From assembly GCA_016933575.1 (NCBI GenBank), contig JAFGAR010000064.1, forward strand, positions 96,001 to 160,000: a stretch of DNA of 64,000 nucleotides. The letters are read 5' to 3'. Numbering within the stretch: position 1 is the first letter of the stretch; each line of letters starts with the position of its first letter. The translations under genes were made by a program, and so were the position numbers. The stretch comes from Candidatus Thorarchaeota archaeon (GTDB taxonomy: Archaea > Asgardarchaeota > Thorarchaeia > Thorarchaeales > Thorarchaeaceae). Shown here one piece after another: positions 2,622-41,691 of the stretch. A model generated the notes under the pieces. That model was not told the DNA's origin. It did no database searches and was given only the letters and a program-made list of their open reading frames with translations.

Positions 2622-4484
2622 GTGGAAAGAAATCAACTACTCGCGATTGTTGTGATTGTAGTTGTCGTAGCGGGCGCAGGAGTCGCCTTTGTCTTCATGC
2701 AGCAGCCAGGAAGGCCGCCAGAGAATACTCTGATATGGGAGACAATTGGTAATCCTGACTATATGGACCCTCACGTCAACTATGAGAGCTTCGGTTCGTG
2801 GGTACAATTCAACATATATGAAACGCTATACACATATCCGTGGGATAGCGCTGTAACCGATCCATCGGTTCCATTACTGGCTGCATCAGCACCAGTATTA
2901 TCAGCCGATGGTAAGAACTATACTATTACTCTTCGACAAGGCATCACCTTCCATGACGGCACACCATTCAATGCTAGCTGTGTCAAATGGAATATGGAGC
3001 GTGCGATGAAGATTTTCTACCCAGATGGTCCAGTCTGGATGGTTGCTGAACCACTCGTTGGTGGTGGTGCAGTTGAGGCAGCCGCTTTTGGCGACGGTCC
3101 AACATCTGCAGCATTCAAGGCAGCATTCGACAACTGGGTTGAGAATTCCAGTGCCATCATTGTCATGGACACGTACGTGATTAGATTCCGTCTTGCTGAT
3201 CCTTACCCGGCCTTTATCGCTGCAATTACCTATGAGGTAGGCGCAATGATAAGCCCAACCTACGCTATTGCTCACGCAAGTGATGCAGCTTGGGCAACCT
3301 GGGATGCATATGGTGTTGATTACGGCGAGTATGAGAATCCAATGACTACTCAGACTTGCGGTACTGGCCCATACATGCTTACCAATTGGGTACCCGATCA
3401 GTACATTGAATTAACTCTGTACGAAGACTACTGGAGAACCTCTACCAGCACTGGTGCAGGCTCACTCGAAAAGGTCTTCATTCGAACCAATGAAGATGTC
3501 AACGGCAGGTCATTGAACCTGAGAGCTGGTACAACTGATGCTTGTTACTGGCCAACCACAAACGCTCTAGATATCTGGAGCAATGTAACCGACGATTCCA
3601 CCGATCCAAACATCTTTGTCTCAACTGGTGGTTATAGCTACACTGTAACATTCTTTGGATTCAACATGGGAATCATCAACATGACCACTGGCGCAGTTCT
3701 TGATGAGAAGGTTAGTCCCTTCCAGTGGCTGAACTTCAGGCGCGCAGCATCATGGGCTATGGACTATGAAGCGTTCCTGTCAGCAGCTGTCAATGGATTT
3801 GGTGTCCAGGGTAAGGGATGCATACCCATCGGAATGTTCGGTCATAATGGAAGCGCATACAACTGGGAATACAATCTTACTGCAGCAGTAGAAGAATGGA
3901 ACCTTGCAATGGCTGATCCTAATTTCGTTGATTCACTCAATGAGTTGGACAACCATCTAGTTCTCTACTACAACTCCGGTAACACCGTGAGAGAGCAGGG
4001 CTGTCTATTGCTAGCTGATGGTCTCAATGCAATGTGGGGTGATGACGATGCTGACGACACTGGTCTGGATGCAGCAATGACTGTCACAACCCAGGCACTC
4101 GAATGGTCCAACTATCTAGATGCCATTCGTGAGAAGAGGATGGCAATCTTCTTCGTCGGTTGGGCACCTGACTATGCAGACCCAGACAACTATGTCTATC
4201 CATTCGCATACCACTACGGTACATACGCTCAGAGAATCTCCTACAACGATACTGACGTTAACACCTGGTACGAGGAAGCTAAGATCGAGACTGATGAAAC
4301 CGCTCGAAAGCACTTGTACAACTTGATTCAGGAGAAGCTCGCTGAAGATGCACCCTATCTGTGGATGTACCAAGCTACCGAGTTCAGAACTTGGAGAGCC
4401 TGGCTACACGGTGATGGTTTGGTCTACAACCCAATGCACCAAGCTTACTTCTACCACATGTACAAGACATACCCAACCACATAG
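2622..4484 (+). CDS. dppA: Peptide/nickel ABC transporter substrate-binding protein (family 5), N-terminal membrane anchor
   Basis: YETLY, LRQGITFHDGTPFNA, GTGPY, GWAPDYADPDN motifs; hydrophobic N-terminus; GGAGG SD. Confidence 0.92.
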   Translation: MERNQLLAIVVIVVVVAGAGVAFVFMQQPGRPPENTLIWETIGNPDYMDPHVNYESFGSWVQFNIYETLYTYPWDSAVTDPSVPLLAASAPVLSADGKNYTITLRQGITFHDGTPFNASCVKWNMERAMKIFYPDGPVWMVAEPLVGGGAVEAAAFGDGPTSAAFKAAFDNWVENSSAIIVMDTYVIRFRLADPYPAFIAAITYEVGAMISPTYAIAHASDAAWATWDAYGVDYGEYENPMTTQTCGTGPYMLTNWVPDQYIELTLYEDYWRTSTSTGAGSLEKVFIRTNEDVNGRSLNLRAGTTDACYWPTTNALDIWSNVTDDSTDPNIFVSTGGYSYTVTFFGFNMGIINMTTGAVLDEKVSPFQWLNFRRAASWAMDYEAFLSAAVNGFGVQGKGCIPIGMFGHNGSAYNWEYNLTAAVEEWNLAMADPNFVDSLNELDNHLVLYYNSGNTVREQGCLLLADGLNAMWGDDDADDTGLDAAMTVTTQALEWSNYLDAIREKRMAIFFVGWAPDYADPDNYVYPFAYHYGTYAQRISYNDTDVNTWYEEAKIETDETARKHLYNLIQEKLAEDAPYLWMYQATEFRTWRAWLHGDGLVYNPMHQAYFYHMYKTYPTT

Positions 4485-4514
4485 GTTAGGTCCGGTAGTT
4501 AGTAACTACAACTA

Positions 4515-4553
4515 GATGCAGAGGCTTCGGCCTCTGTCATCCTTTTCTTTTTT
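4515..4553 (+). terminator. Hairpin + U-tract terminator
   Basis: CAGAGGC-TTCG-GCCTCTG followed by CCTTTTCTTTTTT after the dppA stop. Confidence 0.7.
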
Positions 4554-4737
4554 CAAACTTCACTTTCCTGAGTGATTACTATTCAAACTCAATTACTCAA
4601 CAAGGGAGTAGAACTCTGTTATTGCCCTGATATGATAGTTAAAAAAGTCAGTATCAATTTGTGATTAGAATAATTTTGCTTAGTGGCGAATCATTATATT
4701 ATCCAAAAAACAAACATAATCGATAGTTGGTGAAAAA

Positions 4738-5643
4738 ATGAAGGACCTATCATCCATAACTGCTACAGAGTTATTCACTAAGTGGTGGGATGAACGCTGG
4801 ATTCGTGGAATAGTTCTCATGTTGATTCCTATTGGCATAATTGACACTGTGTTTACTATTAGCATTGCACAGCTCTATGGAATTGAAGCTGAGTTCAATC
4901 CCATTACCCGGTTCTTTCTTTCCTCATCATTCTGGTTCTTATGGCCAATTCTTAACATAAGTGGTTTCATGTTCTTCTGTATGATGGCCGGGTCATATTA
5001 CTTGCATTCTAGACTAAAACTAGGTGGCCCCGATACATCTTGGATTTCAGTAATTATCGCATTGCGCGTTGCTATGGTTGGCTATAATGTCACATTCTAC
5101 TACCTACCCTTTGTCATTACGGTGTACCCTCCATTTTGGGCTGCCTTCATCAGCTTTGTAATGACATTCTTCCTAATGAACAACCTTCTAAAACGCCAAA
5201 ATGATATTAGTTGGGAACAAACAAAATACACAATCACCAGTAAATACATCAACTATCGAGATTCAAAATTGATCTCTTCTGCTGGAATCCCTGAACAAGA
5301 TAAGGAAGATACAAGCTCCATCAAGGAAGATCTCAAGAAAGAGGTTCTTTCTGGCATACCGAAAAAGAATCAACCTCTATGGAAAAATCCTTGGGTAAAA
5401 CGAGTTGTATATCTTAGCAGTGCAGCCTTTTCGTTTGTATTAATGGGGATGGCGATTGAATTCATTAGCAACATTTCAGGATTATCAACATGGAACGACC
5501 AACGTGGTGCCTATTTTGTACTTAATGAGATAACAGGCCCTCCTGTTATGGCCTCTTTTATTGCGATATTGTTCTTCATGGGGCTATCATTATTCTTTAT
5601 TCTTAGAGCATTTTCTACTACTCAAGAAATTGACCTTGATTAA
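4738..5643 (+). CDS. Membrane protein: DUF5658-like N-terminal domain + conserved C-terminal 2-TM module
   Basis: IDTVFT...G.EAEFNP motif, multiple TM segments; C-terminal 89 aa homologous to 5773..6051 and to the C-terminus of 28143..29576. Confidence 0.75.
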   Translation: MKDLSSITATELFTKWWDERWIRGIVLMLIPIGIIDTVFTISIAQLYGIEAEFNPITRFFLSSSFWFLWPILNISGFMFFCMMAGSYYLHSRLKLGGPDTSWISVIIALRVAMVGYNVTFYYLPFVITVYPPFWAAFISFVMTFFLMNNLLKRQNDISWEQTKYTITSKYINYRDSKLISSAGIPEQDKEDTSSIKEDLKKEVLSGIPKKNQPLWKNPWVKRVVYLSSAAFSFVLMGMAIEFISNISGLSTWNDQRGAYFVLNEITGPPVMASFIAILFFMGLSLFFILRAFSTTQEIDLD

Positions 5644-5772
5644 ACAGGAAATGGCCAACACCTACGAAGTAAGTTTTTCTACGCATATAGTAGTATTATT
5701 AACTGAATCATTAAGAGTCATTCAAACGTGAGTATATCACTCTTTGAGTGCAAATCGAAGTGATGATTGATT

Positions 5773-6051
5773 ATGTCACATGACGCAAAACCTTGGTATA
5801 AGAATATCTGGCTACAAAGAATCTTCTATATTACATGTGCTATATTATCCTTGCCAGCGATGAGCTTTGCTATTCAATTAACATCCGATGCCACCGGTTT
5901 ATCGAACTTTAATTATGGTGTTTTCATCTTAAATGAGGTAACAGGTCCAATTGTCATGCTCAATTTTATTTTCATTCTCTTCTTCATTGGTCTGTGTATG
6001 GTATTCATCTTCAAGGCATTCAGTATACAAGAAGACTTGCCTATCGATTGA
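5773..6051 (+). CDS. Small 2-TM membrane protein (standalone copy of the conserved module)
   Basis: PWYKNIW..R...FILNEVTGP.VM...FFIGLCM.FI.KAF; paralogous to two other C-termini in the window; ATG 5773 preferred over TTG 5767. Confidence 0.8.
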   Translation: MSHDAKPWYKNIWLQRIFYITCAILSLPAMSFAIQLTSDATGLSNFNYGVFILNEVTGPIVMLNFIFILFFIGLCMVFIFKAFSIQEDLPID

Positions 6052-6114: not shown

Positions 6115-6147
6115 AAAAAAAGCTGGGTAGCTCGAAAAGGAGCTACC
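6115..6147 (-). terminator. Hairpin + U-tract terminator overlapping the stop codon
   Basis: GGTAGCTC-gaaaag-GAGCTACC with an A-run at 6115-6121. Confidence 0.5.
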
Positions 6148-7189
6148 TCATTGTTAGAGCCATTACTGCTTTTTGAGCATGTAATCGATTTTCAGCTTGA
6201 TCAAAAGCAATGGATTGTGGTCCGTCAATGACTGAGTTTGATACTTCGAATCCGCGGTCGCATGGGAGACAGTGCATATAGGCTGCCTTCGGTCCTGCAA
6301 TCTTCATCATATCATCATCACAGATCCAGTGTTTGTTCTTATCAAACACAACCTGTGATTTCTCTAGCTCTGGCTTACTATTGAACGGTGGAATGAACTC
6401 CTTACATGTCCAAGCCTTAGGATAGACTACATGTGCACCTTCAAAGGCTTCCTCCATGTCATTCACAATCTCGAAACTCGATTCGTTCTCTTCTGAGAAG
6501 ACTCTGCACTGATCAAGGATTTTATCATCAAGCTCCATTCCCTTTGGATGCGCAAGAACAGTTTCACAGCCCATCTTCGTAGCTGCTATTATTGCGCTCT
6601 GAGGAACAGCAAGAGGCTTGTGAACTGATGGTGAATATGCCCATGACATAACAAATTTGACACCTTTGAAAGTGCCAAACTTTTCCTTAATGGTCATGAT
6701 ATCAGCAAGTCCTTGACATGGATGGTAGATGTCATCCTCCATGTTAATTACAGGGATATGACTCCAGTGAGCAAAATTCCGTATAACCTCATTTGCTCGA
6801 CCATAGATCCATCCAACAGGATCGCCATAACATCGAATAGCAATCCCGTGTCCCATTCTAGCAAGAACTCGTGCTACATCAGACACACGTTCCGTGGAAT
6901 AGGCTTTCTCATCTCCTTCAAGTGCTGGAGCATATATCTTGCCGGGGTCAAGAAAATGTGCATGACCACCGAGCTGTGTCATTCCAGCCTCGAATGAGTT
7001 GCGAGTTCGAAGACTCTGGTTGTAGAAGATCATGAACAGCGTTTTTGCATCGAGAAGCTTATGAGGTTCACCAGTGGCAAACTTCCGTTTGAGGTCAAGT
7101 GCGACCTCAAGGAGGGTTTCGATTTCCTCCTTTGAGTAATCAAGCAGAGTTATGAAATCTCTGCCACGAAAACTTTCTGTTTTAACCAT
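6143..7189 (-). CDS. Carbamoyltransferase, YgeW/N-acetylornithine-carbamoyltransferase-like
   Basis: SLRTRNSF, HPCQGLAD, HCLP, QAENRLH; SWAYSPSVHKPLAVPQS resembles the YgeW WAYSPSYGKPLSVPQG segment. Confidence 0.85.
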   Translation of the reverse strand: MVKTESFRGRDFITLLDYSKEEIETLLEVALDLKRKFATGEPHKLLDAKTLFMIFYNQSLRTRNSFEAGMTQLGGHAHFLDPGKIYAPALEGDEKAYSTERVSDVARVLARMGHGIAIRCYGDPVGWIYGRANEVIRNFAHWSHIPVINMEDDIYHPCQGLADIMTIKEKFGTFKGVKFVMSWAYSPSVHKPLAVPQSAIIAATKMGCETVLAHPKGMELDDKILDQCRVFSEENESSFEIVNDMEEAFEGAHVVYPKAWTCKEFIPPFNSKPELEKSQVVFDKNKHWICDDDMMKIAGPKAAYMHCLPCDRGFEVSNSVIDGPQSIAFDQAENRLHAQKAVMALTMR

Positions 7190-13575: not shown

Positions 13576-14601
13576 ATGAAACTGAGAGATTATATTATTC
13601 GGAGGCTCCTGTTAGCTATCCCAGTAGTAATCGGTGTCTTAGCTATAACCTTCGTTCTTTCTTATATTGTTGGTAATCCAATCACTCTTTATACCACAGA
13701 ACGAACAAGACCCGAGGCTCTAGCTGGTATCATAGCTGAACACGGGCTGGACAGACCTATCTACATCCAATTCTTCTACTATTTACGAGATTTAATACTA
13801 GGCGACTGGGGTTATTCTCGAACTGCGAGAATGGATGTGACAGAAGCAATTTCTTGGAAGCTTCCAGCAACCATTGAGCTTGCTCTTGTAGCAATGATCT
13901 TTGCTGTAATTGTTGGAATTCCTCTTGGAATTGTTTCCGCAACGAAAAAAGACAAAGCACCAGATCATATCACAAGAATAGTAGCACTAGCTGGTGTCAG
14001 TATGCCCATTTTCTGGTTCGCACTGATCCTCAAGTATCTCTTCTTTTATCAGTTCTTTACTTGGGGTCTACCCTATCTTCCAGAAGGTGGTCGGTATTCC
14101 TATGAGTACATACCATATACACCAATTACGAATTTCGTACTAGTCGATTCTATTATCACACTCAATCCTGTCTTACTCTTCGATGCAGCAATACATTTGA
14201 TATTACCGGGTTTTGCCCTAGGATATCTGACCTTGGCCATCATTACAAGAATGATGCGTTCAAGTATGCTGGAAGTGTTGAAGGAGGATTACATAACTCT
14301 GGCAAGATCCAAAGGTCTTCGTGAGCGAGTAGTTATCTATAAGCACGCACTTCGCAATGCAATGATTCCCACTGTAACAGTAATTGGTCTTGCATTCGGT
14401 GGTCTGATGACTGGAGCAGTTCTGACAGAGACTATCTTTAGCTGGCCTGGTCTTGGTAGATGGTCAACTCGTGCGATATTGACCTCAGATATACCAAGTA
14501 TCAATGCATTCACTCTACTGGTAGCATTCATCTTCGTGGGTGCCAACCTAATAGTGGACTTAATCTACGGGACATTGGATCCAAGGATTCGGTACGGATA
14601 G
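13576..14601 (+). CDS. dppB: Peptide ABC transporter permease DppB/OppB
   Basis: GLDRPIYIQF, PATIELA, RSSMLEVL.EDYITLARSKGL, ETIFSWPGLG, DPRIR. Confidence 0.93.
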   Translation: MKLRDYIIRRLLLAIPVVIGVLAITFVLSYIVGNPITLYTTERTRPEALAGIIAEHGLDRPIYIQFFYYLRDLILGDWGYSRTARMDVTEAISWKLPATIELALVAMIFAVIVGIPLGIVSATKKDKAPDHITRIVALAGVSMPIFWFALILKYLFFYQFFTWGLPYLPEGGRYSYEYIPYTPITNFVLVDSIITLNPVLLFDAAIHLILPGFALGYLTLAIITRMMRSSMLEVLKEDYITLARSKGLRERVVIYKHALRNAMIPTVTVIGLAFGGLMTGAVLTETIFSWPGLGRWSTRAILTSDIPSINAFTLLVAFIFVGANLIVDLIYGTLDPRIRYG

Positions 14602-14615
14602 GAGGCTGAAAGAAA

Positions 14616-15911
14616 ATGACACAAACAGATACATGGAGTGCCGCAATTTCTGGTTCTATTGAGCAAGAGGAAACACCACAATCAATTAACGCGCTCTGTG
14701 TTGTACAGATTATTGTTGCTCTCATCGGAATGTTAACAGGAGTTCTTGCTTTTACGAATTCCTTCATTCTATATACTGCTGAATCTATCCCATTGGTTGG
14801 AGCTCTGGGATCCATGATGGTAACAGCACTACCAATGGTCATTATAGGCTTATTACTCATCCGAATTGGTCTAGATGCGCGAAAGCTGGAAACCTATGCA
14901 TTCTCATGGATTATCTATGGCAATGCAATAATGATACTTCTAACCTTCATGGCTGGAGGAGTCTTCCTCTACTCAGGGATAGCAAATGTCGCTGTTGTGG
15001 CGATGCTCTTTATCCCTCAGGTAAAAGAGTACTGGTGGGATCTTTTCAGGGAAGATATGGGCCCTCGAGCAAAAGAGACAAGGTACATGTTTTACCTAAT
15101 CCGAAGAAGTCCTCTAGTGATTGCTGGAATTGCTATTATCGTATTCTATGTCTTTCTAGCTTTAGCAGCTCCATGGATTACTCCTTATGGTCCAACTGAA
15201 CGCAACTGGTATGAAACACTACAACCTCCCAGTGCAACACATCTTTGGGGCACTGACCAGAATGGCGGTGATGTTTTCAGTATGGTAATTTGGGCTACGC
15301 AGATAGATCTTAAGATCGCAATTTCTGTTGTTGCTGTAGCACTTATCATGGGATCATTAGTCGGTGCAGCAGCTGGTTACTTTGGAGGCGCTGTTGACGA
15401 AGTCGTAATGAGAATTACCGACGTCTTCTTTGCCTTCCCGGGTCTTATCTTGGCTATGGCAATTGTAGCTGCACTTGGTCAGAGAAACCTTGACAACATC
15501 AGTATTGCTCTGATGTTAGTGTGGTGGCCAACCTATGCTCGACTTGTAAGAGGCCAAGTCCTTATCGAACGAGAGAAGCTTTACGTCGAAGCTGCACGAT
15601 CTGTTGGAGCTTCAGATGTGAGAATTCTAATATTCCACATTCTACCTAATACAATCCAACCAGTAATTGTACAAGCAACTCTGGATATGGGTGGTGTTCT
15701 GCTAACTGCAGCTGGTCTGAGCTTCATCGGATTCGGAGCCGAAGCCGGAACCGCGGAATGGGGCTGGATGATATCTCAGGGTCAGAACCACTTCATGAAC
15801 TACTGGGTGACATTCTTCCCTGGAATGGCAATTCTCATGTGCGCACTCTCATTCAATCTTGTTGGTGATGGAGTTCGTGACATTCTAGATCCCAAGCTGC
15901 GGAGGCGCTAG
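14616..15911 (+). CDS. dppC: Peptide ABC transporter permease DppC/OppC with extra N-terminal TM domain
   Basis: HLWGTD, YVEAARSVGA, HILPN, GLSFIGFG, GDGVRDILDP; ~150-aa hydrophobic N-terminal extension. Confidence 0.9.
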   Translation: MTQTDTWSAAISGSIEQEETPQSINALCVVQIIVALIGMLTGVLAFTNSFILYTAESIPLVGALGSMMVTALPMVIIGLLLIRIGLDARKLETYAFSWIIYGNAIMILLTFMAGGVFLYSGIANVAVVAMLFIPQVKEYWWDLFREDMGPRAKETRYMFYLIRRSPLVIAGIAIIVFYVFLALAAPWITPYGPTERNWYETLQPPSATHLWGTDQNGGDVFSMVIWATQIDLKIAISVVAVALIMGSLVGAAAGYFGGAVDEVVMRITDVFFAFPGLILAMAIVAALGQRNLDNISIALMLVWWPTYARLVRGQVLIEREKLYVEAARSVGASDVRILIFHILPNTIQPVIVQATLDMGGVLLTAAGLSFIGFGAEAGTAEWGWMISQGQNHFMNYWVTFFPGMAILMCALSFNLVGDGVRDILDPKLRRR

Positions 15912-15927
15912 ATTAGGAGTTGATATC

Positions 15928-17142
15928 ATGGCCATAGACGAAACTTCACAGAGTACAGAAAAATCTGAGACTGCTCTTCAACTAGATCCTACAATCGTAC
16001 TGGATGTTCGTGATCTTAAAACGAACTTCTATACATATGAAGGAGTTGTGAAGGCCTTGGATGGAGTTACAGTTCAACTACGAACTGGAGACACTCTTGC
16101 GTTAGTAGGTGAAACTGGGTGTGGCAAGAGTGTAACTGCAAAGTCAATCATGCGGCTCGTCGACTCCCCCGGAAGAATTGAAGCTGGACAGGTTATCTTT
16201 CAGGACATTGAACCTGATGGTGAACATGTCTTCAAGGATCTTCTGAAAGTCTCCGAAGCTGAGATGAGGGAGATTCGTGGTAATAAAATCTCTATTGTCT
16301 TTCAAGACCCTGCAACCTATCCGAATCCCGTATTCAAGATAGGTGACCAGATTGCTGAAGTCATTGCTCTTCATCAAGACCTATCTCTGGAGATTCTCCA
16401 GGACAAGATAGAGTCAATGGAGGAAGCGTTGAAACATGCTGATGGTCCTACTGCTGACGATATCTCAATCCGTCTTGAAGAACTCCGAGAGCAACTCAGC
16501 TCTCCTCCAAAACCAACAGACTCAGAAACAAAGAAAGCAGCCAAACGTAAGGCAATTGAGATGCTTAATCTCGTCCGAATGCCTTCTGCAGCTGAGATTG
16601 CCAACCAGTATCCTCATGAACTATCTGGTGGAATGCGCCAGAGAGCTCTGATTGCTATGTCGTTATCATGTAATCCACGGATTCTGATAGCCGATGAAGC
16701 AACGACAGCATTAGATGTAACAGTTCAAGCACAGGTGCTCAAGCTGCTTAATGAACTCAAATCAGAACTCGATGCATCTATCATCATCATTACTCATGAC
16801 CTTGGTGTTGTTGCTGAAACGTGCACTCAGGTGGCAGTAATGTACGCAGGTGTGGTTGTCGAATACACCAATACTGAGGAGTTGTTTTCTGATCCGATAC
16901 ATCCCTATACTTCAGGTCTTCTTGATGCAATTCCCAAGCTTACTGTGAAAGTGGAGAAACTGTCGCAGATTATGGGCACTGTACCTAATCTGATTAATCC
17001 ACCAACTGGATGCAGGTTCCATCCACGATGTGAGTTTGCTACAGAACAATGTAAGCAACAGAGACCTCCACGAGAGGAAATGAAACCTGGTCATTGGGTT
17101 GAATGTTGGCATCCTCAGGGTTCAATGCTACGGAGGAAATGA
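15928..17142 (+). CDS. dppD: Peptide ABC transporter ATP-binding protein DppD (with helical insertion)
   Basis: GETGCGKS, LSGGMRQR, IADE, ITHD, HPY and C-terminal Cys cluster. Confidence 0.92.
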   Translation: MAIDETSQSTEKSETALQLDPTIVLDVRDLKTNFYTYEGVVKALDGVTVQLRTGDTLALVGETGCGKSVTAKSIMRLVDSPGRIEAGQVIFQDIEPDGEHVFKDLLKVSEAEMREIRGNKISIVFQDPATYPNPVFKIGDQIAEVIALHQDLSLEILQDKIESMEEALKHADGPTADDISIRLEELREQLSSPPKPTDSETKKAAKRKAIEMLNLVRMPSAAEIANQYPHELSGGMRQRALIAMSLSCNPRILIADEATTALDVTVQAQVLKLLNELKSELDASIIIITHDLGVVAETCTQVAVMYAGVVVEYTNTEELFSDPIHPYTSGLLDAIPKLTVKVEKLSQIMGTVPNLINPPTGCRFHPRCEFATEQCKQQRPPREEMKPGHWVECWHPQGSMLRRK

Positions 17143-17145
17143 ATT

Positions 17146-18186
17146 ATGTCGTATGGAGTACACGGTGATAAACTAATAGAAGTCAAGAACCTGAAGAAAT
17201 TCTTTCCTCTAAGTGGTGGAGTGTTTAGAAAGGTTCTCGGTTATGTGAGAGCTGTTGACGATATCTCTTTTGATATCTTTAAGGGTGAAACACTTGGTCT
17301 TGTTGGCGAATCCGGTTGTGGAAAGACCACAGCTGGTAGAACAATTCTAAGGTTGATTCCTGCGACAGCGGGTGAGATTCTCTTTGAAGGAGAAGACATT
17401 GTTAAGATGAAGCGAGGAGATCTAAAAGATCTCCGACGTAACATGAGTATTGTCTTCCAAGATCCCATGGCATCTCTTGATCCTCGTTTGACTATCAAGA
17501 ATGCTGTTGGTGAACCTCTTCTTGTGAACGGAATTGCGCGTGGTCACAGACTGCGTAATATGGTACTCGAGCTTCTTGAGAAAGTTGGTCTGAATGAGGA
17601 TCACCTGAATAGATTCCCTCACGAGTTCTCAGGAGGTCAAAGACAAAGAATCTGCATAGCGCGAGCTCTTGCTTTGAGACCAAAATTCATTGTAATGGAT
17701 GAACCAACATCCAGCACTGATGTCTCAGTTCAAGCTCAGACATTGAATCTTATGAAGGACCTACAGAAGGAGTTCGACCTTACTTATCTCTTCATCAGCC
17801 ATAATCTCAGTGTAGTAAAACACATGTCTGATAGAGTGGCTGTGATGTATTTGGGTAAGATTGTCGAAATGACTCCCAAGGATATCTTCAAGCAAGCTAT
17901 GCATCCATACTCTGCTGCACTAGTATCAGCAGTTCCTGTTCCAGATCCATCTCTGAGAGGACGTGCCGAGGTTCTAGCAGGGGAAGTACCAAGTCCTATC
18001 AACCCACCAAGCGGTTGTCGATTCCATCCTCGATGTAGGTTTGCTACAGAACGATGTAGTGAAGAAATTCCAGAGCTTCGCGATATGGGTGATGGTCACC
18101 TTGTGGCATGTCACTATGCTGGAGAGCTAGATCTTGGACATATTGAGGAATTAATTCCTGAAAGTGGAACAACTGTTCAAGTGTAG
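17146..18186 (+). CDS. dppF: Peptide ABC transporter ATP-binding protein DppF
   Basis: [27 protein letters not shown] and GCRFHPRC. Confidence 0.93.
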
Positions 18187-20449: not shown

Positions 20450-20570
20450 TGCTTGTTCGTGTCACATAGAAGCTTAGAAAACAGTTTCGTTCAGGTCAAT
20501 TCCTAATTCATTCGGTTTCTTTCGATAGACCTAAAACCAATATAATGCTCATGAATTGTCTGTGAGTAAA

Positions 20571-21602
20571 ATGAACAAACTTTACGGACGTGACCTTATC
20601 ACAACACAGGATTGGAGTGTTGATGAGATTGAACAAGCTCTTAAGCTTGCTTTCGAATTCAAGGCTAATCGTTACGACCATCCTATGAACAATTGTCTAG
20701 ATCGTCGTACATTCTTCATGTTCTTCTATAATCCCTCTGTTCGAACTCGACAGTCCTTTGAAGCTGCAGCTACTGAACTTGGAGGACATGCCCAGTTCCT
20801 CGAGCCAAAATCAATGCGACTGAAATCATCAAAATCTGCTGGAGAGACTATAGAAGACGCAGCTCAGGTCATGAGTCGCTATGCTGTCGGAATTGGAATT
20901 CGAATTCTCGAAACTGCCATCGACTATTATGGTCAAGGCGATGAGTTACTCCGTCAGTATGCAGCCAATGCGAGTATCCCAATCGTCAGTATGGCTCATG
21001 ATAAATTCCACCCATTCCAAGGATTAGCTGATGTGATGGGATACAGACAACATGCTGGCAAGAATCTCAAAAGAAAGAAGATTCTTCAGGTGTGGGGAAA
21101 AGGAGCTCTTGTAAGGTCTTGGTGCAGTGTGCAGGAGAGTATCCTCATCAATTCTAGATTAGGAATGGATGTTACGCTTGCTTATCCAAAGGGTTATGAT
21201 CTTGATCCTCAAGTGATGAAATGGTGCAAAGAGAATGCTGAGGCAGCAGACAGCACATTCGAAATAGTTCATGATTTGGAGGAGGGTTACAAAGATGCGG
21301 ATATTGTGTACTCAAGGAACTGGATGACATCGAATTTCTATGATGATATGGCGAAGCATGGTGTTGATGAAGCAAAGAAGAATGAGATAGAGATCGCTGC
21401 TAAATATGATGATTGGATCACAACCAAAGATTGGATGTCAAGAACCAATGATGCATTCTTTACGCATTGTGGACCTGTTGACCGGAATGCAGAAGTCACG
21501 GATGAAGTCTGTGATGGACCGCGGTCAATCGTTTATGATGTAGCAGAAGCTCGTCTCCACGTACAAAAGGCTGTAATGGCACTTACAATGGGAAAACAAT
21601 AA
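20571..21602 (+). CDS. Divergent carbamoyltransferase (OTCase/AOTCase superfamily)
   Basis: PSVRTRQSF, HPFQGLAD, HCGPVDR, AEARLHVQKA; GTGAG SD before ATG 20571 (ORF open from 20556). Confidence 0.85.
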   Translation: MNKLYGRDLITTQDWSVDEIEQALKLAFEFKANRYDHPMNNCLDRRTFFMFFYNPSVRTRQSFEAAATELGGHAQFLEPKSMRLKSSKSAGETIEDAAQVMSRYAVGIGIRILETAIDYYGQGDELLRQYAANASIPIVSMAHDKFHPFQGLADVMGYRQHAGKNLKRKKILQVWGKGALVRSWCSVQESILINSRLGMDVTLAYPKGYDLDPQVMKWCKENAEAADSTFEIVHDLEEGYKDADIVYSRNWMTSNFYDDMAKHGVDEAKKNEIEIAAKYDDWITTKDWMSRTNDAFFTHCGPVDRNAEVTDEVCDGPRSIVYDVAEARLHVQKAVMALTMGKQ

Positions 21603-21838: not shown

Positions 21839-22924
21839 TTATTCTTCAGATATTTCGCTCCATCGATGACATCTAATCCAGTGGTCTGGTTCAACTTCTC
21901 TATCTTCTGGCACTTGTTCCTTACAGATATCAATTGCATATTGACAACGTGGATGAAATGGGCAACCTGTTGGTAAACATGCCAAGTCTGGCGGATCGCC
22001 AGGAATCCCTCGAAGGCGTGGTCTTTTGCCTGCTTTCATTTGCATCATTGCTATCGTTGGAAATGATGACATCAATCCCATGGTGTATGGATGTCGAGGA
22101 TTGTGAAACATCTGAACTGCAGGTCCCGACTCTAGAATCTTTCCGCCATACATTACAGCTACGCGATCTGCTAGTTCTGCAATGACTCCTGCATCATGAC
22201 TGATTAAGAGAAGAGAAACGTCGAACTCTTCTTTTATCATTCTCAGAACGTTCAGTATCTGTCGCTGCATTGTGACATCTAAGGCTGAAGTTGGTTCATC
22301 TGCTATCACCATGTATGGTCCAGCTATCAGTGCCATAGCTATCAGAATTCGTTGGCTCTCTCCACCACTGAAGCAGCCTGGATCTAAGACAAACCTGATT
22401 CCTGCATCAGCAAGTTGAACGATTCCAAGATATTCAAGAACTTTCTTTTTGAGTTCGATAAGCCGTATGTCTTCCTCATGGACTTCTATTGGCTCTGCAG
22501 TCTGATGACCTATGCTATGTTGTGGATTCAATGCATGTCCAAGTCCTTGAGGTATCATACTTATTTCCCTACCACGAATCTTGACGAGTTCCTCTTGTGG
22601 AAGTCTTGTTAGTTCTTTTCCCCTGAATGTTATTTTACCACGAATCCCCGGTCTATCAATCTCCCCATCAAGACCCTTATCGAATGCTTTTCTGAGATTT
22701 GGATCATTTGAAGCACCAGCTGCAAATCTAGCAACTTTTTCAAAAAGTCCAATGATTGAAAGTGCCATACTAGTCTTTCCCGATCCACTCTCTCCTAAAA
22801 GACCCAGGCACTCGCCTTCCTTGACTGTCAATGATACATCATCTACAGCCCGAATAAGGCCTTTATTCGATGGATAGTATGCCTTCAGATTTTCAATGAT
22901 GAGTATCGGATCACCCTTAGTCAT
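21839..22924 (-). CDS. Orphan DppD-like ABC ATP-binding protein
   Basis: GESGSGKT, FSGGESQR, IADEP, ISHD, HPY and CPFHPRC..C..C; insertion after Walker A; no adjacent permease. Confidence 0.88.
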   Translation of the reverse strand: MTKGDPILIIENLKAYYPSNKGLIRAVDDVSLTVKEGECLGLLGESGSGKTSMALSIIGLFEKVARFAAGASNDPNLRKAFDKGLDGEIDRPGIRGKITFRGKELTRLPQEELVKIRGREISMIPQGLGHALNPQHSIGHQTAEPIEVHEEDIRLIELKKKVLEYLGIVQLADAGIRFVLDPGCFSGGESQRILIAMALIAGPYMVIADEPTSALDVTMQRQILNVLRMIKEEFDVSLLLISHDAGVIAELADRVAVMYGGKILESGPAVQMFHNPRHPYTMGLMSSFPTIAMMQMKAGKRPRLRGIPGDPPDLACLPTGCPFHPRCQYAIDICKEQVPEDREVEPDHWIRCHRWSEISEE

Positions 22925-23096
22925 TAAAGCACCAGTGGCGGCGGTGGTTTTTCAGTTAATAAACAGTATCAAAGGAGCATTATAGGGATACCTTACAGAT
23001 ATTCTTAAACGGTGTTCTGTTTGACTAAGAAATAACGTAAAGACATCTCCTATGTCGGAGTAGGTCATACAACCTATCCTATTAGATTAATCCACG

Positions 23097-23145
23097 AACG
23101 CCTTGATGAAGGCTCTAATTGACAAGGAGTTGTAATCGAGGCGTT
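23097..23145 (+). promoter_or_regulatory. Long 5'-leader hairpin covering the SD of the acyltransferase gene
   Basis: AACGCCTTGAT/ATCGAGGCGTT 11-bp stem, GAA/GTA internal loop, GGCTC/GAGTT upper stem; ends 6 nt before ATG 23152. Confidence 0.45.
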
Positions 23146-23151
23146 TTAACC

Positions 23152-24288
23152 ATGGCACAAAATCGAGTATCTTGGGTTGATATTGCTAAAGCATTAGCTT
23201 TGATACTTGTTATTGCTGTTCATTCTATACCTCGAAATTTCTATTCTAGCATATTAACTGGTTTTGTAATGCCAGCATTCTTCATTCTTTATGGTGTCAC
23301 TCATAATGCAGACAAACACCGTGAGAATCTCACCGGTTATATTTACAACAGATTCCGTTCATTGATGATACCCTATGTTATTCTTTCCTTTGTCATGATT
23401 CTTATGTATACATTACTTTATCCCCAGATTGATTTTGGATTTACGCCCCTAGATACCTTGTTTTGGTTCTTCTATGGAAATGGTCCAATGGGTCGAATTT
23501 CTCACCTCTGGTTTCTCAGAACCATGTTTTTTGCTATCATTCTATTCTCTTTAGTTGACAAGTATCTTAACAATAAGCCTGAAATTTTGCGTTTCCCATT
23601 GATATTGGGTCTACCAGCAATTGGTGTATTTCTCAAGACTGCAACAGGGGTTGAACTAGTACCTTGGGGACTGGATGCTGTACTGATCTCGCTATCCTTC
23701 ATTATGATTGGTAATGAAATTCGCAAATTCGCTCATACATCGCCATGGACAGTAGATCCCATATTTGATGGGATTACAGTATTTCTGTCTCTGATTTTCT
23801 TCCTACTTCTCTCGATATCCAATGGATTTGTCAATATTGGTGAGAGTCTCTATGGTTTGTCGATATACACCTATTTACTGACGGGACTTCTTGGAACTTA
23901 TTGTTTAGGAATCATCTCATATCATCTGAGTAATCGAAGTTCTTTGCTTACAAAAGTTGCTCAAAGATGGAATCGATTTGGACAAGAGATTTACGAGCTT
24001 CATCCTCTCATAATAGAAGCTAACTATCAGTTTCTTGGAGGTCTTGTAGTCTTGAATGTTATAACCTACTACCCGGGTATACTCCTCTTTCTTGTCAATT
24101 TCTTTGCTGCTATGGTGGTCACATACTTTGCGTCTTCGAGAATCATATCAAAATCATCAATTCTTCGTCTTGCGTTTCTTGGTTGGAGTAGCACAAAACA
24201 TGTACCTACTAAGATAGAAGAGATTCCAACACAATCCATCTTAGAAGAACGGCAGGAGATTCTTGAAGAAAACGCTATATTAGAGTGA
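23152..24288 (+). CDS. Acyltransferase family 3 (membrane O-acyltransferase)
   Basis: RVSWVDIAKALALILVIAVH, FVMPAFFILYG, RFRSLMIPY, HLWFL, IYELH; about 10 TM; ATG 23152 preferred over TTG 23119. Confidence 0.88.
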   Translation: MAQNRVSWVDIAKALALILVIAVHSIPRNFYSSILTGFVMPAFFILYGVTHNADKHRENLTGYIYNRFRSLMIPYVILSFVMILMYTLLYPQIDFGFTPLDTLFWFFYGNGPMGRISHLWFLRTMFFAIILFSLVDKYLNNKPEILRFPLILGLPAIGVFLKTATGVELVPWGLDAVLISLSFIMIGNEIRKFAHTSPWTVDPIFDGITVFLSLIFFLLLSISNGFVNIGESLYGLSIYTYLLTGLLGTYCLGIISYHLSNRSSLLTKVAQRWNRFGQEIYELHPLIIEANYQFLGGLVVLNVITYYPGILLFLVNFFAAMVVTYFASSRIISKSSILRLAFLGWSSTKHVPTKIEEIPTQSILEERQEILEENAILE

Positions 24289-26960: not shown

Positions 26961-28085
26961 CTACCATTTTGGCAGTTCTTCATATCTATGGCACATCACA
27001 AAATGCCCATCCTCAACCTCTCGGTATTCAGGTTTCTTCTCACGACAGACATCCTGAGCGAACTCGCATCTATCTTTGAATGGACATCCAATGATGATTT
27101 CAGCAAGATCTGGAGGTTTCCCGGGAATCCCTCTGATCCTTAATCCCTTTTCCTTTACCTTTCTGATGACCTCCATGGAGGGATTACTCATAATGAAAGC
27201 CCTTGTAAATGGATGCCCCGGTGATGTCATGATAGTTGCAGTACTACCAAACTCAACGATGTGTCCTGCTGTCATTACCGCGACCTTATCGCATGTCTGA
27301 GATATTGTGCCCTGATTATTGCTTATCATTAGCATTGACAAGTCCATTTCTTCTCTAGCTATTTGGATGGCTTCAAGAATTCGCAACTGAATAGCCATAT
27401 CTACTGCAGTAGTAGGTTCGTCTGCGATGAATAGAGCTGGATCTGGGACCAGAGCCATAGCAATTAGTACTCGCTGATCTTCACCTACACTGAATTGACG
27501 TGGTTTCATACCTTTTCGAATATCAACATCTCCCAACTCAATGAGGTCAAGAGTTTGAAGTACTTTCTTCATGACACGAATCTCATTCAGTGTATTATCT
27601 TCATCATGAGCATAGAGACTCTCCGCAGTCTGCTCCTCAATAGTAGAATACGGATTCAGTGATTTAGTTGATCCCTGCGGCACGTAGGTGATCTCAGCAC
27701 CTCTTATCTCTCTATACTCCTTTTCATCAAGAGTAAGCAGATCCTTCCCTTTGAACCAGATGTGCCCCTCCACTCCTGGAAGGTCTTCGCCTATATCCTT
27801 CGAGGTAAGCCCTTTTTTGTTTGCCTCATCTCGTAGTTTCCATAGCCGTTTGTTCTCTTCATTTGCAGCAGTTGAGGCGAAGTATCGTGAGAGATTATCA
27901 AAGATGCCTAGAATTGCGAGAGCAACAGTTGTCTTGCCTGCTCCTGACTCTCCGAAAAGACCAACTGATTCTCCCTTTCGAACTTCAAAACTGATATCAT
28001 TCACTGCTCGAATGAGACCCTTCTTTGATGTATAGAATGCCTTGAGTCCTTCAACTTTGAGTACTACATCATCATCAACGGTCAT
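26961..28085 (-). CDS. Orphan DppD-like ABC ATP-binding protein with degenerate signature and H-loop
   Basis: GESGAGKT, FSVGEDQR, IADEP, ISNN, HPF and CPFKDRC..C..C; paralog of 21839..22924. Confidence 0.85.
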   Translation of the reverse strand: MTVDDDVVLKVEGLKAFYTSKKGLIRAVNDISFEVRKGESVGLFGESGAGKTTVALAILGIFDNLSRYFASTAANEENKRLWKLRDEANKKGLTSKDIGEDLPGVEGHIWFKGKDLLTLDEKEYREIRGAEITYVPQGSTKSLNPYSTIEEQTAESLYAHDEDNTLNEIRVMKKVLQTLDLIELGDVDIRKGMKPRQFSVGEDQRVLIAMALVPDPALFIADEPTTAVDMAIQLRILEAIQIAREEMDLSMLMISNNQGTISQTCDKVAVMTAGHIVEFGSTATIMTSPGHPFTRAFIMSNPSMEVIRKVKEKGLRIRGIPGKPPDLAEIIIGCPFKDRCEFAQDVCREKKPEYREVEDGHFVMCHRYEELPKW

Positions 28086-28142
28086 AATTTTTCAATAGAG
28101 GTTTCATTGAAATACTCTATGGCTAGCGCATCAATGCTACTT

Positions 28143-29576
28143 TCAAATTGGTATTTCATCATCATCAATTGTGAAGGCCTTGTAAATGAAAGCCATACAG
28201 AGACCTATGAAAAAGATGATGATCATTATGTTTATCATCACTCCAGGTCCTGTCACATCATTTAGAATAAAGTACGGTTGGTTGATTCCCCATTGGGTCA
28301 AACCTGTAAGGAAACTGACAATCTCGATAGATGCCATCATAACTATCATGGACATTACTGAACCGAATAGACAGACCACTCTCTTAGTCCATACATGTTT
28401 GTACCAAGGCTTTCCTTTCAATCCCACTCGTTTCTCAGCTTCATACCAAAGTATTCCCCCTGTAAAGGAAACTGTCAAGTTCAAGAGATAGAACGGTATA
28501 TAGTACAGTACATTAGGAAACCCAAATTCAATTGCAAAATTCGGAATTTCATGATAGTAGACTGCTTCATGCGATGCTGCCCAATACACAAGAGACATCC
28601 AAAAAATCTGAAATAGAAGGATATGATATGAGGCTCTACCGACCCTCTGAACAAACCTCTGTACAGAACTTGTTGCTTTTTGCGGAATAGACATCATGGC
28701 CGCGAGAAAGAGTAACGCTGCATAGCCATAGAATAAGAGGGTATAATCGCCTCGAAAGATTACATCGATGAGTGAGAATGAGTCACCAACTATTCCTGGA
28801 ATTGACGAAAAGAAATGAGTCGTATAATCAGTCATGAATATCAGAGAGATTGGTACGTAGATACCCATGAACCAATTCCGCTTGTCAAACAGATTATACC
28901 CTTTCGAGAACCAGAGTCCCAAACCTATTGCAGGCAAAAAGAATAGAACAATTTGACGTATGATCGATACAAGAAATCCTTCAAGTTGACTCTCGAAAGG
29001 AAGCGGGAAAACAAAATGCATCAATAATTGTAGACTCAGCTCACTCAAAAAGCATAGAATTATGGTAATCTTGGGATATTTTGTGAATGACCAATAGACT
29101 AGTGGGAATACTAGAATCGAGCTGAATAGAAGAAAGATGAACCAGTTTCCAGGCCCCCAGAACGGAAGATATAGCAGGAGTAAAAATACACTGGTGTCTA
29201 GATATCCGAAATATAATCCGATAAGAATTGATGCCATATATAGAATAAGGAATGGAAAGACATAACGTACAATCTTGCGTTTGAAATATTCTTTTGTGTA
29301 GAGGTCTTTTAGGTCTGGAGAAGCAGTGTATTTGAATGAATACGCCATATTAAATCCCATTACTATAAGAAAGAATGGTATGGACAATCTCTCCCAGAAG
29401 AGACTACCAAGATATCCTTTGATCTCCCAAGTCAAGCTATGGTCCATTACGACAAAGGCAATAGCAACAGCTTTGAGAACATCAAGCTGAAAATAGTACG
29501 GTCTCTTACCACCATCTTCTTGTTCTCGTTCTTCTTCTATTTCTTCTGGCGATGTTTTCTCGTAAATCTCTGCCAA
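28143..29576 (-). CDS. Acyltransferase family 3 protein fused to the conserved C-terminal 2-TM module
   Basis: QLDVLKAVAIAFVVMDH, IPFFLIVMGF, RKIVRYVFPF, GNWFI, GRASYHILLFQ; C-terminal 88 aa homologous to 5773..6051. Confidence 0.85.
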   Translation of the reverse strand: MAEIYEKTSPEEIEEEREQEDGGKRPYYFQLDVLKAVAIAFVVMDHSLTWEIKGYLGSLFWERLSIPFFLIVMGFNMAYSFKYTASPDLKDLYTKEYFKRKIVRYVFPFLILYMASILIGLYFGYLDTSVFLLLLYLPFWGPGNWFIFLLFSSILVFPLVYWSFTKYPKITIILCFLSELSLQLLMHFVFPLPFESQLEGFLVSIIRQIVLFFLPAIGLGLWFSKGYNLFDKRNWFMGIYVPISLIFMTDYTTHFFSSIPGIVGDSFSLIDVIFRGDYTLLFYGYAALLFLAAMMSIPQKATSSVQRFVQRVGRASYHILLFQIFWMSLVYWAASHEAVYYHEIPNFAIEFGFPNVLYYIPFYLLNLTVSFTGGILWYEAEKRVGLKGKPWYKHVWTKRVVCLFGSVMSMIVMMASIEIVSFLTGLTQWGINQPYFILNDVTGPGVMINIMIIIFFIGLCMAFIYKAFTIDDDEIPI

Positions 29577-37049: not shown

Positions 37050-38033
37050 CTAATTCCAGCATGCCACAAAGTGTCCGGGAGATACCTCGTGTAATTGTGG
37101 TTCTTCTTCTTTGCATTGAACTCCGAATTCTTGGCACCTTGGCTTGAACCTACAACCTGGGGGTAGATCAATAGGTGTTGGGGTTTCTCCTGGTAGCATT
37201 ATTCGGTCTCGTTCAATAGTAGGGTCTGGAATAGGGATATTTGAAACAAGTGCCTTTGTGTATGGATGCTGTGGAGACTGAATAACATCCTCCATTGGAC
37301 CCATTTCTGCAATTCTACCCAGATACATAATGATCAGGTAATCTCCAACGTATCGTGCTTGAGCCAAATCATGAGTAATGAAGATGTATGTCAGATTCTT
37401 CTCTTTCTGCAAATCGGTCATGAGATTCATGACTTCTGTTCTGATACTTGCATCCAACATAGAAACTGGTTCATCCGCAATGATTAGCTCCGGTTGAAGT
37501 ATAAGAGACCGCGCAATAGCAATCCTCTGTAGTTGCCCTCCGGATAGCTCGTGAGTGTATCGAGTCGCAAAATCTTCAGCAGGAATAAGTCTCACATCTT
37601 CAAGAGCGGATATGACCTTATCATGAAGTACCTCATCATTATCTTCGAGTTTATGGATAACAAGACCCTCACCAACTAGATCTACAACAGTGTGTCTTGG
37701 ATCCAACACCTCGAAAGGATTCTGGAAAATCAATTGCATTTGTAATCTTAATTCACTGAGTTCCAATCGATTCATTTCAAAGATATTATTACCATTGAAG
37801 TAAGCAGCACCTGAAGAAGGTTCAATTAGACGAAGGATAGTTCTGGCTAATGTAGTCTTGCCACAACCACTCTCTCCTGCTATCGCAATAGAACCTCCTC
37901 TAGGAACTTCAAAGCTCACATTATCAACAGCTTTGACATATCTTAATGGTTTTCCAATGGACATCAGACCACTTCTTACGGGAAACCATTTTCTAACTTC
38001 TTGAACACTAAGAATAGTATCTGCACTTGCCAT
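37050..38033 (-). CDS. dppF: Peptide ABC transporter ATP-binding protein DppF
   Basis: [35 protein letters not shown]. Confidence 0.92.
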   Translation of the reverse strand: MASADTILSVQEVRKWFPVRSGLMSIGKPLRYVKAVDNVSFEVPRGGSIAIAGESGCGKTTLARTILRLIEPSSGAAYFNGNNIFEMNRLELSELRLQMQLIFQNPFEVLDPRHTVVDLVGEGLVIHKLEDNDEVLHDKVISALEDVRLIPAEDFATRYTHELSGGQLQRIAIARSLILQPELIIADEPVSMLDASIRTEVMNLMTDLQKEKNLTYIFITHDLAQARYVGDYLIIMYLGRIAEMGPMEDVIQSPQHPYTKALVSNIPIPDPTIERDRIMLPGETPTPIDLPPGCRFKPRCQEFGVQCKEEEPQLHEVSPGHFVACWN

Positions 38034-39023
38034 TTACTCATCTCCTCCGAAATCAAGTTCGCCAGCAAAGTGGCATTTGGCAAAATGACCTTCTTCAATT
38101 TCCCTTAACTCAGGAATCTCCGTTTTGCAAATACTCTGCGCAAATGGACATCTTGGATGAAATCTACATCCTGATGGAAGATTCAGAAGATTGGGTGGAG
38201 ATCCAGGGATGAACTGCAACCGCTTCTTTGGTCCTACTACACTCGGAAATGCTCCAATCAGTTTGTAGGAGTAGGGATGCAGACTACGTTTGAATACCGC
38301 TTCGACATCACCCACTTCAACAAGGTTGCCTGCATACATTATACCGACATCATGGCAATTCTCTGCCACAACAGAGAGATCATGAGTGATAAAGAGAACA
38401 GCAAGATTGTACTTTTCTTGAAGTTTTCTAAGAAGATCAAGTATCTTATTCTGAACAATGACATCCAAAGCTGTTACAGGCTCGTCTGCAATGATTAGGT
38501 GTGGGTCACATGCAAGTGCTTGCGCGATGATTGCCCTCTGCAGCATCCCTCCACTGAATTCATGAGGATAATCTCGTTGTCTCTCTGGTTTCAATCCAAC
38601 TTCATCAAAGAGATCGTTCACAATCATTCTAGCAGCATCTTCAGTGACCTCATCCTTTTCCCGAATGACTTCAACAATCTGATTCCCAATCCTGAGAACA
38701 GGATTGAATGCATTCATGGCATACTGGAAGACGATGGAAGCTTTCTTCCATCTTATCTGTCGCATCTCTTCATCACTGAGCGTTGTTAGTTCAACACCAT
38801 CCAGTTTTATGCAACCTCGCGCTATCTTTCCATTTTCAGCAAGAATCCTTAGGATACTATAAGCTGTGGTCGTCTTACCACATCCTGATTCACCTGCGAG
38901 ACCTAGAGTTCTTTTTTCATGAATATCGAAGCTCACTCCATCAACGGCCTTAAGTTCCCTTTGACCTAGATAATAGTAACTTGCAAGGTCTCGGACCTGC
39001 AGAATTGGTTCATCCGTTGCCAA
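38034..39023 (-). CDS. dppD: Peptide ABC transporter ATP-binding protein DppD
   Basis: [36 protein letters not shown]. Confidence 0.92.
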   Translation of the reverse strand: MATDEPILQVRDLASYYYLGQRELKAVDGVSFDIHEKRTLGLAGESGCGKTTTAYSILRILAENGKIARGCIKLDGVELTTLSDEEMRQIRWKKASIVFQYAMNAFNPVLRIGNQIVEVIREKDEVTEDAARMIVNDLFDEVGLKPERQRDYPHEFSGGMLQRAIIAQALACDPHLIIADEPVTALDVIVQNKILDLLRKLQEKYNLAVLFITHDLSVVAENCHDVGIMYAGNLVEVGDVEAVFKRSLHPYSYKLIGAFPSVVGPKKRLQFIPGSPPNLLNLPSGCRFHPRCPFAQSICKTEIPELREIEEGHFAKCHFAGELDFGGDE

Positions 39024-40511: not shown

Positions 40512-40523
40512 TCTATCACCTCC

Positions 40524-41516: not shown

Positions 41517-41642
41517 ATTCTACTCTCCAATACTGCAAATAGTAGGATGAATCTATACAATTCCCCCTTAAAGAATATCGGACAAAGTAAGAATGAATTC
41601 CTGTCTGCTTTATTCTGAGTCAACACACAGAAACCCTGCAAC

Positions 41643-41677: not shown

Positions 41678-41691
41678 TAAAATCTAAACTA

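Follow-up and report, generated by a model that had tools for sequence, protein, structure and literature searches.

A two-helix membrane hairpin shared by three Thorarchaeota proteins and its genomic link to an SBP5/OppBCDF importer locus

Introduction

Small helical membrane subunits accompany several transporters, like KdpF, AcrZ, DctQ of the TRAP transporters and TctB of the TTT transporters. In the acyltransferase-3 (AT3) proteins OafA and OafB, the AT3 part is followed by a linking helix and a periplasmic SGNH domain, with the addition crossing the membrane once. For importers of the Opp (peptide) type, which belong to the ATP-binding cassette (ABC) transporters, we know of no accessory subunit of the kind described here. 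In a stretch of 64,000 nucleotides from a Candidatus Thorarchaeota archaeon (contig JAFGAR010000064.1, positions 96,001 to 160,000; called the window in the following), a module with two predicted transmembrane helices was identified, which is designated the hairpin. It forms the C-terminal end of a protein designated D300 (P0001), makes up the whole of a small protein encoded directly downstream (P0002), and is also present at the C-terminus of an AT3 protein (P0003).

Like OafA and OafB, P0003 combines a ten-helix AT3 core with extra transmembrane segments at the cytoplasmic C-terminal end. However, the addition in P0003 consists of two helices which are predicted to return to the cytoplasm, and it carries no catalytic domain on the outside. 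In addition, it is shared with proteins that are not acyltransferases and with free genes, and roughly half of the acyltransferase orthologues lack it. As a functional analogy, the hairpin can be compared to KdpF, AcrZ, DctQ and TctB, since it is a small helical membrane unit without a catalytic motif, is encoded together with a transporter locus and occurs either free or fused. It differs from these subunits in having no sequence similarity or specific fold similarity to any of them, and its link to an importer is one of gene order and co-loss. Small accessory subunits of transporters and the shuffling of domains were already known, but the hairpin family itself is new.

Three Copies of the Hairpin in One Genome

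The three open reading frames (ORFs) and their shared C-terminal module had been pointed out in an earlier reading of the letters of the window, here called the sequence-only reading, and all of them were found where that reading had placed them (Table 1). The last approximately 90 residues of P0001, P0002 and P0003 align with two small gaps, with a pairwise identity of 40–47% and 27 invariant columns. In a BLASTP comparison, P0002 and the hairpin of P0003 shared 47% identity over 91 residues, with an E-value of 4e-20. When a hidden Markov model (HMM) built from the three copies was used to search the 3.47-Mb, 85%-complete genome, it matched at exactly the three known places. On the basis of the identities, the BLASTP E-value and the HMM matches, the hairpin is a real module, with a homology among its copies that is far beyond chance. 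The DNA of the copies had been described as differing mainly at third codon positions. Third positions do differ most (63–69%), but first positions (43–49%) and second positions (25–29%) also differ to a large extent.

For P0002, two start codons can be considered. The ESM Atlas entry for this protein begins at the ATG, and the start of the gene lies 129 bp 3' of the D300 gene. Orthologues of P0002 were identified in the equivalent position in four further genomes (G001, G003, G009 and G012).

Anatomy and Predicted Topology

Residue statistics were obtained from 44 aligned hairpin copies. The module begins with a W-x-K/R-R motif, has an outside loop with the consensus TG..W..G..F.xNExTGP, and ends after the second helix with K/R-A-F and an acidic tail. 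The only invariant column is F85, the phenylalanine of the K/R-A-F motif, and nearly invariant are R18, G44 of the TG in the loop and N56 in the N-E-x-T/S-G/A-P motif preceding helix 2. Of the 44 copies, 16 terminate with EGAW or DGAW. In the structural models, two long helices of 30 and 27 residues are joined by a short helix and a coil of 10 residues. A variant with a short loop was found in G007, G015 and G024, in which ..GFNEITG.. alone lies between the helices.

The mean number of lysine and arginine residues is 4.25 in the N-terminal flank, 0.5 in the loop between the helices and 1.0 in the tail, where aspartate and glutamate residues amount to 2.45. Because of this distribution of positive charges, both ends of the hairpin are predicted by the positive-inside rule to be cytoplasmic, with the loop facing the outside. 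Taken together, the alignment describes the hairpin as an autonomous and conserved two-helix unit which is able to exist free or fused.

A Domain Family outside the Curated Collections

A credible match of the hairpin was not obtained in Pfam, where the sole row was FtsL_2 at an E-value of 0.15. No match was found in NCBIfam, and neither the hairpin profile nor a profile of the D300 core retrieved any PDB sequence at E ≤ 1. This agrees with the sequence-only reading, which knew of no named family for the module. Fold searches with the D300 and AT3 models (Foldseek against the PDB, the ESM Atlas and a wide structure search) assigned the module only to generic hairpins with Z-scores of at most 8.5, like the ATP synthase c subunit, CHMP hairpins and designed bundles, and such matches are uninformative for two long helices. 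A language-model search for look-alikes gave scores of at most 0.87, which are leads only. By these searches, the hairpin is an undescribed, lineage-specific membrane domain family which is part of no curated family.

The acyltransferase core of P0003 is an ordinary member of Pfam Acyl_transf_3 (PF01757) by its profile match, with an E-value of 2.2e-13 and 50.4 bits against a gathering cut-off of 31. This match covers most of the profile (positions 3–322 of 326) and residues 30–371 of the protein. The AlphaFold2 (AF2) model of P0003 has a predicted local distance difference test score (pLDDT) of 84 and a predicted template modelling score (pTM) of 0.80. In a structure search, it was matched to the transmembrane acetyltransferase HGSNAT with Z-scores of 18.2 and 16.5 and to GWT1 with a Z-score of 13.1, aligned over model residues 20–385 only, while the structural matches of residues 388–475 were generic helical hairpins. 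Since the profile and structure alignments stop before the hairpin, these comparisons identify it as an addition to the acyltransferase core. That the hairpin is the normal C-terminus of an AT3 protein was ruled out: PF01757 ends at residue 371 of 477, the alignments to HGSNAT and GWT1 end at residues 382–385, and 66 of 119 orthologues stop before the hairpin. The sequence-only reading had named a known Pfam domain or an ordinary AT3 end as results that would refute it, and neither was found to be the case.

The D300 Core

In D300, the hairpin follows a four-helix core and a charged linker. The AF2 model of P0001 has a pLDDT of 81 and a pTM of 0.55. An alignment of 31 D300 orthologues revealed the invariant residues W16, W21, R23, P31, D36, T40, E52, N54, P55, GSYY85-88, R92 and R110. 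This core had been called DUF5658-like. It resembles the small membrane domain DUF5658 (Pfam PF18902), which is uncharacterised, in a common D..T ... E.NP pattern, and DUF5658 was matched in 15 of the 31 orthologues with 16–19 bits (best E-value 2.7e-4, profile positions 5–78 of 82). The resemblance is remote, however, and stays below the gathering cut-off of 25.2 bits required for formal membership; for P0001 itself, DUF5658 was not matched at E ≤ 10. A literature search on DUF5658 retrieved no paper mentioning this domain.

The hairpin is not part of DUF5658. A possible origin of the hairpin as an internal repeat of the DUF5658-like helices was rejected, because hhalign of the core against the hairpin gave a probability of 0.6–1.0%, and the weak HMM echoes are hydrophobic noise. 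The core is single-copy and has the same taxonomic range as the hairpin. In the sister family, represented by G037, a D300 relative of 285 residues was identified with a divergent two-helix hairpin at its end.

Distribution and Architectures

A search of 1.84 billion cluster representatives with a profile built from 44 hairpins resulted in 41 matches at E ≤ 0.001. Of these, 39 were real, and all of the latter belonged to the D300, the standalone or the AT3 architecture, either whole or as fragments. P0033 and P0043 were dropped as repeat junk. Several short entries which seemed to be standalone hairpins (P0008, P0009, P0021, P0042 and P0019/P0025/P0036) are D300 or AT3 fragments, derived from contig ends or internal starts. 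A pattern scan with the three-row alignment identified three loci only, all from metagenome-assembled genomes labelled 'uncultured archaeon'.

The genome survey comprised 400 genomes of the phylum, with 85 from the Thorarchaeota family of the window and 315 from other families. The hairpin was identified in 72 of the 85 genomes of the family, and in two of the 315 Asgard genomes of other families by weak matches only (E about 3e-4). The D300 form, with 285–340 residues, is present in nearly all genomes of the family. Standalone hairpins, encoded by ORFs of approximately 90–135 residues, were found in 22 genomes of nine genera, usually directly 3' of D300 and at times only a few bases away from it. 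The AT3 fusions have 470–528 residues and are present in 22 genomes of two genera. Homologues sharing about 60–65% identity with the acyltransferase are listed at NCBI under the name Candidatus Thorarchaeota archaeon. All three architectures occur together in G000, G001, G003, G009 and G012. In every architecture, the module is either C-terminal or the whole protein, so that its position as proposed by the sequence-only reading holds throughout.

Two further arrangements were observed. In G383, two acyltransferase-hairpin genes are present in tandem (L088:1648-4625), with frames of 477 and 508 residues and very divergent hairpins. A clade of standalone hairpins with the tail ..EEGGW is encoded divergently to a conserved multi-helix membrane protein of about 250–260 residues which has no Pfam family (L072:1284-2527, L089, L090 and L101-L103). 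This protein was found beside the clade at six loci in two genera, with 48–69% identity to the copy in L072. One of the two genera, g7, further includes two other genomes in which a hairpin of this clade directly follows D300.

Association with the SBP5/OppBCDF Importer Locus

Upstream of D300, the window contains a gene for a family-5 solute-binding protein (SBP5) with an N-terminal membrane anchor. SBP5 followed by D300 in the same direction was found in every locus for which the upstream sequence was assembled, and also in G037 of the sister family. Further downstream in the window, an OppB-OppC-OppD-OppF operon is present, with OppB and OppC at 13576-15911, which has no binding-protein gene of its own, and this OppBCDF system is likely the cognate importer of SBP5 and D300. 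In 13 other genomes, the SBP5-D300 pair is divergent to the orthologue of this OppB (13576-14601), with 64–80% identity. In the small clade of the window (G000, G001, G003 and G009), a rearrangement has put the SBP5-D300 half and the Opp half a few kilobases apart.

In G355 (93% complete) and G360 (95% complete), only a hairpin gene of 90–98 residues is present divergent to OppB, while SBP5 and the DUF5658-like core are gone from this locus; a search for the D300 core elsewhere in these two genomes found none. Four genomes of good quality, namely G035 and G371 (97% complete), G391 (99% complete) and the single-contig G357, contain neither the hairpin nor D300. These four also have no OppB orthologue, since the best match shows 37–38% identity compared to at least 64% elsewhere. 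For G395 and G006, the OppB orthologue is located at a contig edge. Among the assembled loci, an orthologous OppB without any hairpin gene was not found. Gene order and co-occurrence thus tie the hairpin most closely to the SBP5/OppBCDF importer locus, which the sequence-only reading had not noticed.

History of the Hairpin

A tree of 76 hairpins, in which supported branches were starred, revealed two deep types split with support values of 98/85. Type II hairpins end with ..EGAW and include several standalone lineages besides the tails of D300. Within type I, there is a starred clade (96/88) with the D300 tails and standalone copies of the kind present in the window, together with all AT3 hairpins. 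Apart from one long branch, the latter form one clade (99/92). For the standalone genes, at least two origins are given by starred branches, and 6–9 origins were obtained across bootstrap trees. The sequence-only reading had described the module as portable, and its presence on a DUF5658-like protein, on an AT3 protein and alone, with at least two origins of the latter form, bears this out.

The hairpin is present in 53 of 119 close orthologues of the AT3 protein and absent from the other 66. On the AT3 core tree, at least 9–11 changes are required, and one clade of 49 members is without the hairpin. Direct traces of loss were also identified. In L050 and L051 (GCA_004524595.1), a decayed hairpin can still be read behind the stop codon of the AT3 gene, interrupted by two stops with a frameshift between them. 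In L052, the reading frame stops at ..KLWYRHV*, and a deletion comes after it. The AT3 hairpin clade, the core tree and these losses indicate that the AT3 fusion arose about once with a hairpin of type I, that it was later lost repeatedly and that it is dispensable for the enzyme. As reconstructed from the trees, the hairpin is ancestral on D300 and secondary on the acyltransferase.

The nonsynonymous divergence (dN) among the three paralogues and most orthologues is 0.3–0.56, and the synonymous sites are saturated, so that the NG86 method fails. For the closest genome pair, G001 and G012, the ratio of nonsynonymous to synonymous divergence (dN/dS) amounts to 0.10 in the hairpin of D300 and to 0.25 in that of the AT3 protein. 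Because of the saturated synonymous sites and these low ratios, the copies are considered to be old and under purifying selection, as had been supposed from the DNA of the three copies. Recent decaying duplicates with dN/dS near 1, which would have refuted the sequence-only reading, are not what was found.

Two observations concern the diversity of the D300 locus. Between species of one genus, SBP5 shares 40–46% and D300 30–36% identity, compared to 64–76% for flanking genes (2622-5643 versus L054-L071). Types I and II coexist within one genus as two deep allelic types. The fast divergence of SBP5 and D300 could result from diversifying selection on exposed surfaces or from cassette exchange.

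Coordinates and Neighbouring Genes

Table 1: Position and characteristics of the hairpin copies, their carrier genes and associated loci.
Feature	Position	Strand	Extent	Characteristics and basis
SBP5 gene	2622..4484	+		family-5 solute-binding protein, N-terminal membrane anchor; Pfam SBP_bac_5, E 8e-60
D300 gene (P0001)	4738..5643	+	301 residues	four-helix DUF5658-like core at residues 1 to ~164, charged predicted cytoplasmic linker at ~165–212, then C-terminal hairpin; ORF and translation
Hairpin copy 1	5365..5640	+	P0001 residues 210–301	model helices 218–247 (first transmembrane helix), 249–256 (short loop helix) and 267–293 (second transmembrane helix); acidic tail ending ..QEIDLD; alignments, AF2 secondary structure, HMM E 4e-46
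Standalone hairpin gene (P0002)	5773..6051	+	92 residues from ATG 5773	alternative start TTG 5767 (94 residues)
OppB-OppC-OppD-OppF operon	13576..18186	+		without own binding-protein gene; Pfam BPD_transp_1, OppC_N, ABC_tran and oligo_HPY
Orphan OppD/F-type ABC ATPase gene	26961..28085	-		directly 3' of the AT3-hairpin gene; Pfam ABC_tran and oligo_HPY
AT3 gene with C-terminal hairpin (P0003)	28143..29576	-	477 residues	AT3 core at about 28464-29489
Hairpin copy 3	28146..28424	-	P0003 residues 385–477	model helices 395–424, 426–432 and 443–469; tail ending ..DDDEIPI; alignment, HMM, AF2 model, BLASTP
Decaying hairpin	L050:5209-5514; L051:4846-5151			in-frame stop at module start; ..GDEIPI still readable at the end
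Locus with a hairpin-only gene	L100:1751-3342 (G355); L099:1-1752 (G360)			tail ..PTEGAW; beside orthologous OppB

The AT3-hairpin gene is flanked by a divergent gene of the major facilitator superfamily on one side and by the orphan OppD/F-type ATPase gene on the other. The same order was found in the Thorarchaeota contigs L050 and L052, and this setting is unchanged with or without the hairpin. Since the neighbourhood is conserved regardless of the hairpin, the ATPase gene is regarded as context only. The window contains two AT3 paralogues, one without the hairpin (23119-24288) and one with it (28143-29576), and each lies beside an OppD/F-type ATPase gene without permease genes (21839-24288 and 26961-29576). 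To our knowledge, a pairing of AT3 proteins with ABC ATPases has not been described. Two paralogues resembling ornithine or aspartate carbamoyltransferases are also encoded in the window (6143-7189 and 20556-21602). Orthologues of the first are 85–98% identical across the family, and a second class of tblastn matches, with 37–38% identity, lies near D300 in other genomes.

What the Hairpin May Do

Gene order, the retention of the hairpin alone beside OppB, and the joint loss of OppB and the hairpin suggest that the hairpin may be an accessory unit of the SBP5/OppBCDF importer, which docks within the membrane. This is put forward tentatively, as a reading with a real but somewhat less than even chance. 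The original home of the hairpin is the C-terminus of D300, a six-helix and probably accessory membrane protein of about 300 residues encoded after the gene for the binding protein of an Opp-type importer. From there, it was released at least twice as a small gene of its own, usually directly after D300, and was captured about once by an AT3 gene, outside of the conserved core and in a dispensable position. The hairpin would dock within the membrane onto the importer assembly, that is, onto OppBC, the anchor of SBP5 or both, either in cis or in trans, and proteins that carry a hairpin, including the AT3 protein, would be held at the site of the importer.

Several observations weigh against a role in importer docking. 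The link to the importer comes from gene order and co-loss, and in most genomes the genes are adjacent, so that one deletion would remove both. Thorarchaeota contain many Opp operons, three of them in the window, where the two paralogous ones lie at 37050-43440 and 50863-56984, and some of the adjacency could be chance, especially for the ATPase gene next to AT3, which is also present beside the AT3 gene without a hairpin. One standalone clade adjoins the unrelated membrane protein of about 250 residues and not an Opp locus. Conservation is lower in the transmembrane helices than in the loop and the tail, and the working part may be one of the latter, not the packing of the helices. In addition, a GC-rich inverted repeat (gcagaggc ttcg gcctctgt) with a T-rich run, resembling a terminator, follows the SBP5 stop codon at 4519-4556. 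Because of this element, D300 is probably not cotranscribed with SBP5 but expressed from a separate promoter within the next 180 bp, which are AT-rich. Co-folding of D300 with the standalone hairpin gave a score of 0.00 in a single run without controls, which has no weight for or against binding.

The sequence-only reading had proposed that the module brings D300 and the acyltransferase into one complex, with the small standalone protein acting as an adaptor or competitor. For this, the hairpins of the three proteins would bind to each other. Such homotypic binding would agree with the presence of the same fold on three proteins of one genome, which co-occur in the five genomes named above, and the position of the standalone gene, usually beside D300 and often at a distance of a few bases, would be in line with a stoichiometric partner. 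However, in G015 and G024 the hairpin of AT3 is of type I and that of D300 is of type II and strongly diverged, the AT3 hairpin was repeatedly lost while D300 was kept, and in G355 and G360 a lone hairpin is present with no other carrier detected. Since the transmembrane helices also have no conserved small-residue packing motif across the types, we consider homotypic binding unlikely. The helices might also serve to anchor the acidic C-terminal peptide at the cytoplasmic face, where it would be read by a soluble partner such as a protease or an ABC ATPase domain. The conservation of EGAW or DGAW in more than a third of the aligned copies despite about 25% identity elsewhere, the sole invariant column, F85, directly before the tail, and the predicted cytoplasmic location of both ends are in line with this role. 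A pure anchor would not need the conserved outside loop (TG, N, T/S-G/A-P), however, and the tail peptide differs between the types, being EGAW in type II and E-L-P-I-D or D-E-I-P-I/V in type I. With no candidate reader protein identified, the presentation of a tail also seems doubtful.

A signal for sorting, insertion or turnover, which directs its carrier to a region of the membrane or sets its stability without a fixed partner, would explain why the hairpin is always C-terminal, portable between unrelated carriers and dispensable for the acyltransferase. For a signal acting purely in cis, it would make little sense to keep cargo-free standalone genes in 22 genomes of nine genera, so that such a signal is improbable. 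The repeated loss from the acyltransferase, including one decaying copy, might suggest that the hairpin itself has no function and is a neutral by-product of duplicated and shuffled domains. This is very improbable in view of the dN/dS values of 0.10–0.25, the 40–60% protein identity kept although synonymous sites are saturated, and the conservation across the whole family with a divergent form in the sister family.

An extension of the docking role in the importer would be a family-specific docking tag, as a membrane counterpart of dockerin. The tag would plug a DUF5658-like core, an acetyl-CoA-dependent AT3 protein, the protein of about 250 residues or a free regulatory copy into one importer, by which uptake would be coupled to modification of the substrate or to regulation. 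This extension is speculative and rather improbable.

Implications

For the annotation of Thorarchaeota genomes, genes of about 95 residues and long acyltransferase tails of this kind are real and should not be discarded. The hairpin adds a domain family without a relative in Pfam, NCBIfam or the PDB, and is restricted to a single Asgard family. On the present evidence, it has no bearing on eukaryogenesis. Its history as a domain is traceable, from an ancestral position on an importer-linked membrane protein to at least two releases as a free gene, about one fusion and many losses. Should docking prove to be its role, the hairpin would rank among the rare interaction tags in nature that are both transmembrane and portable, and Opp-type ABC importers would have a first proposed accessory component in the membrane.

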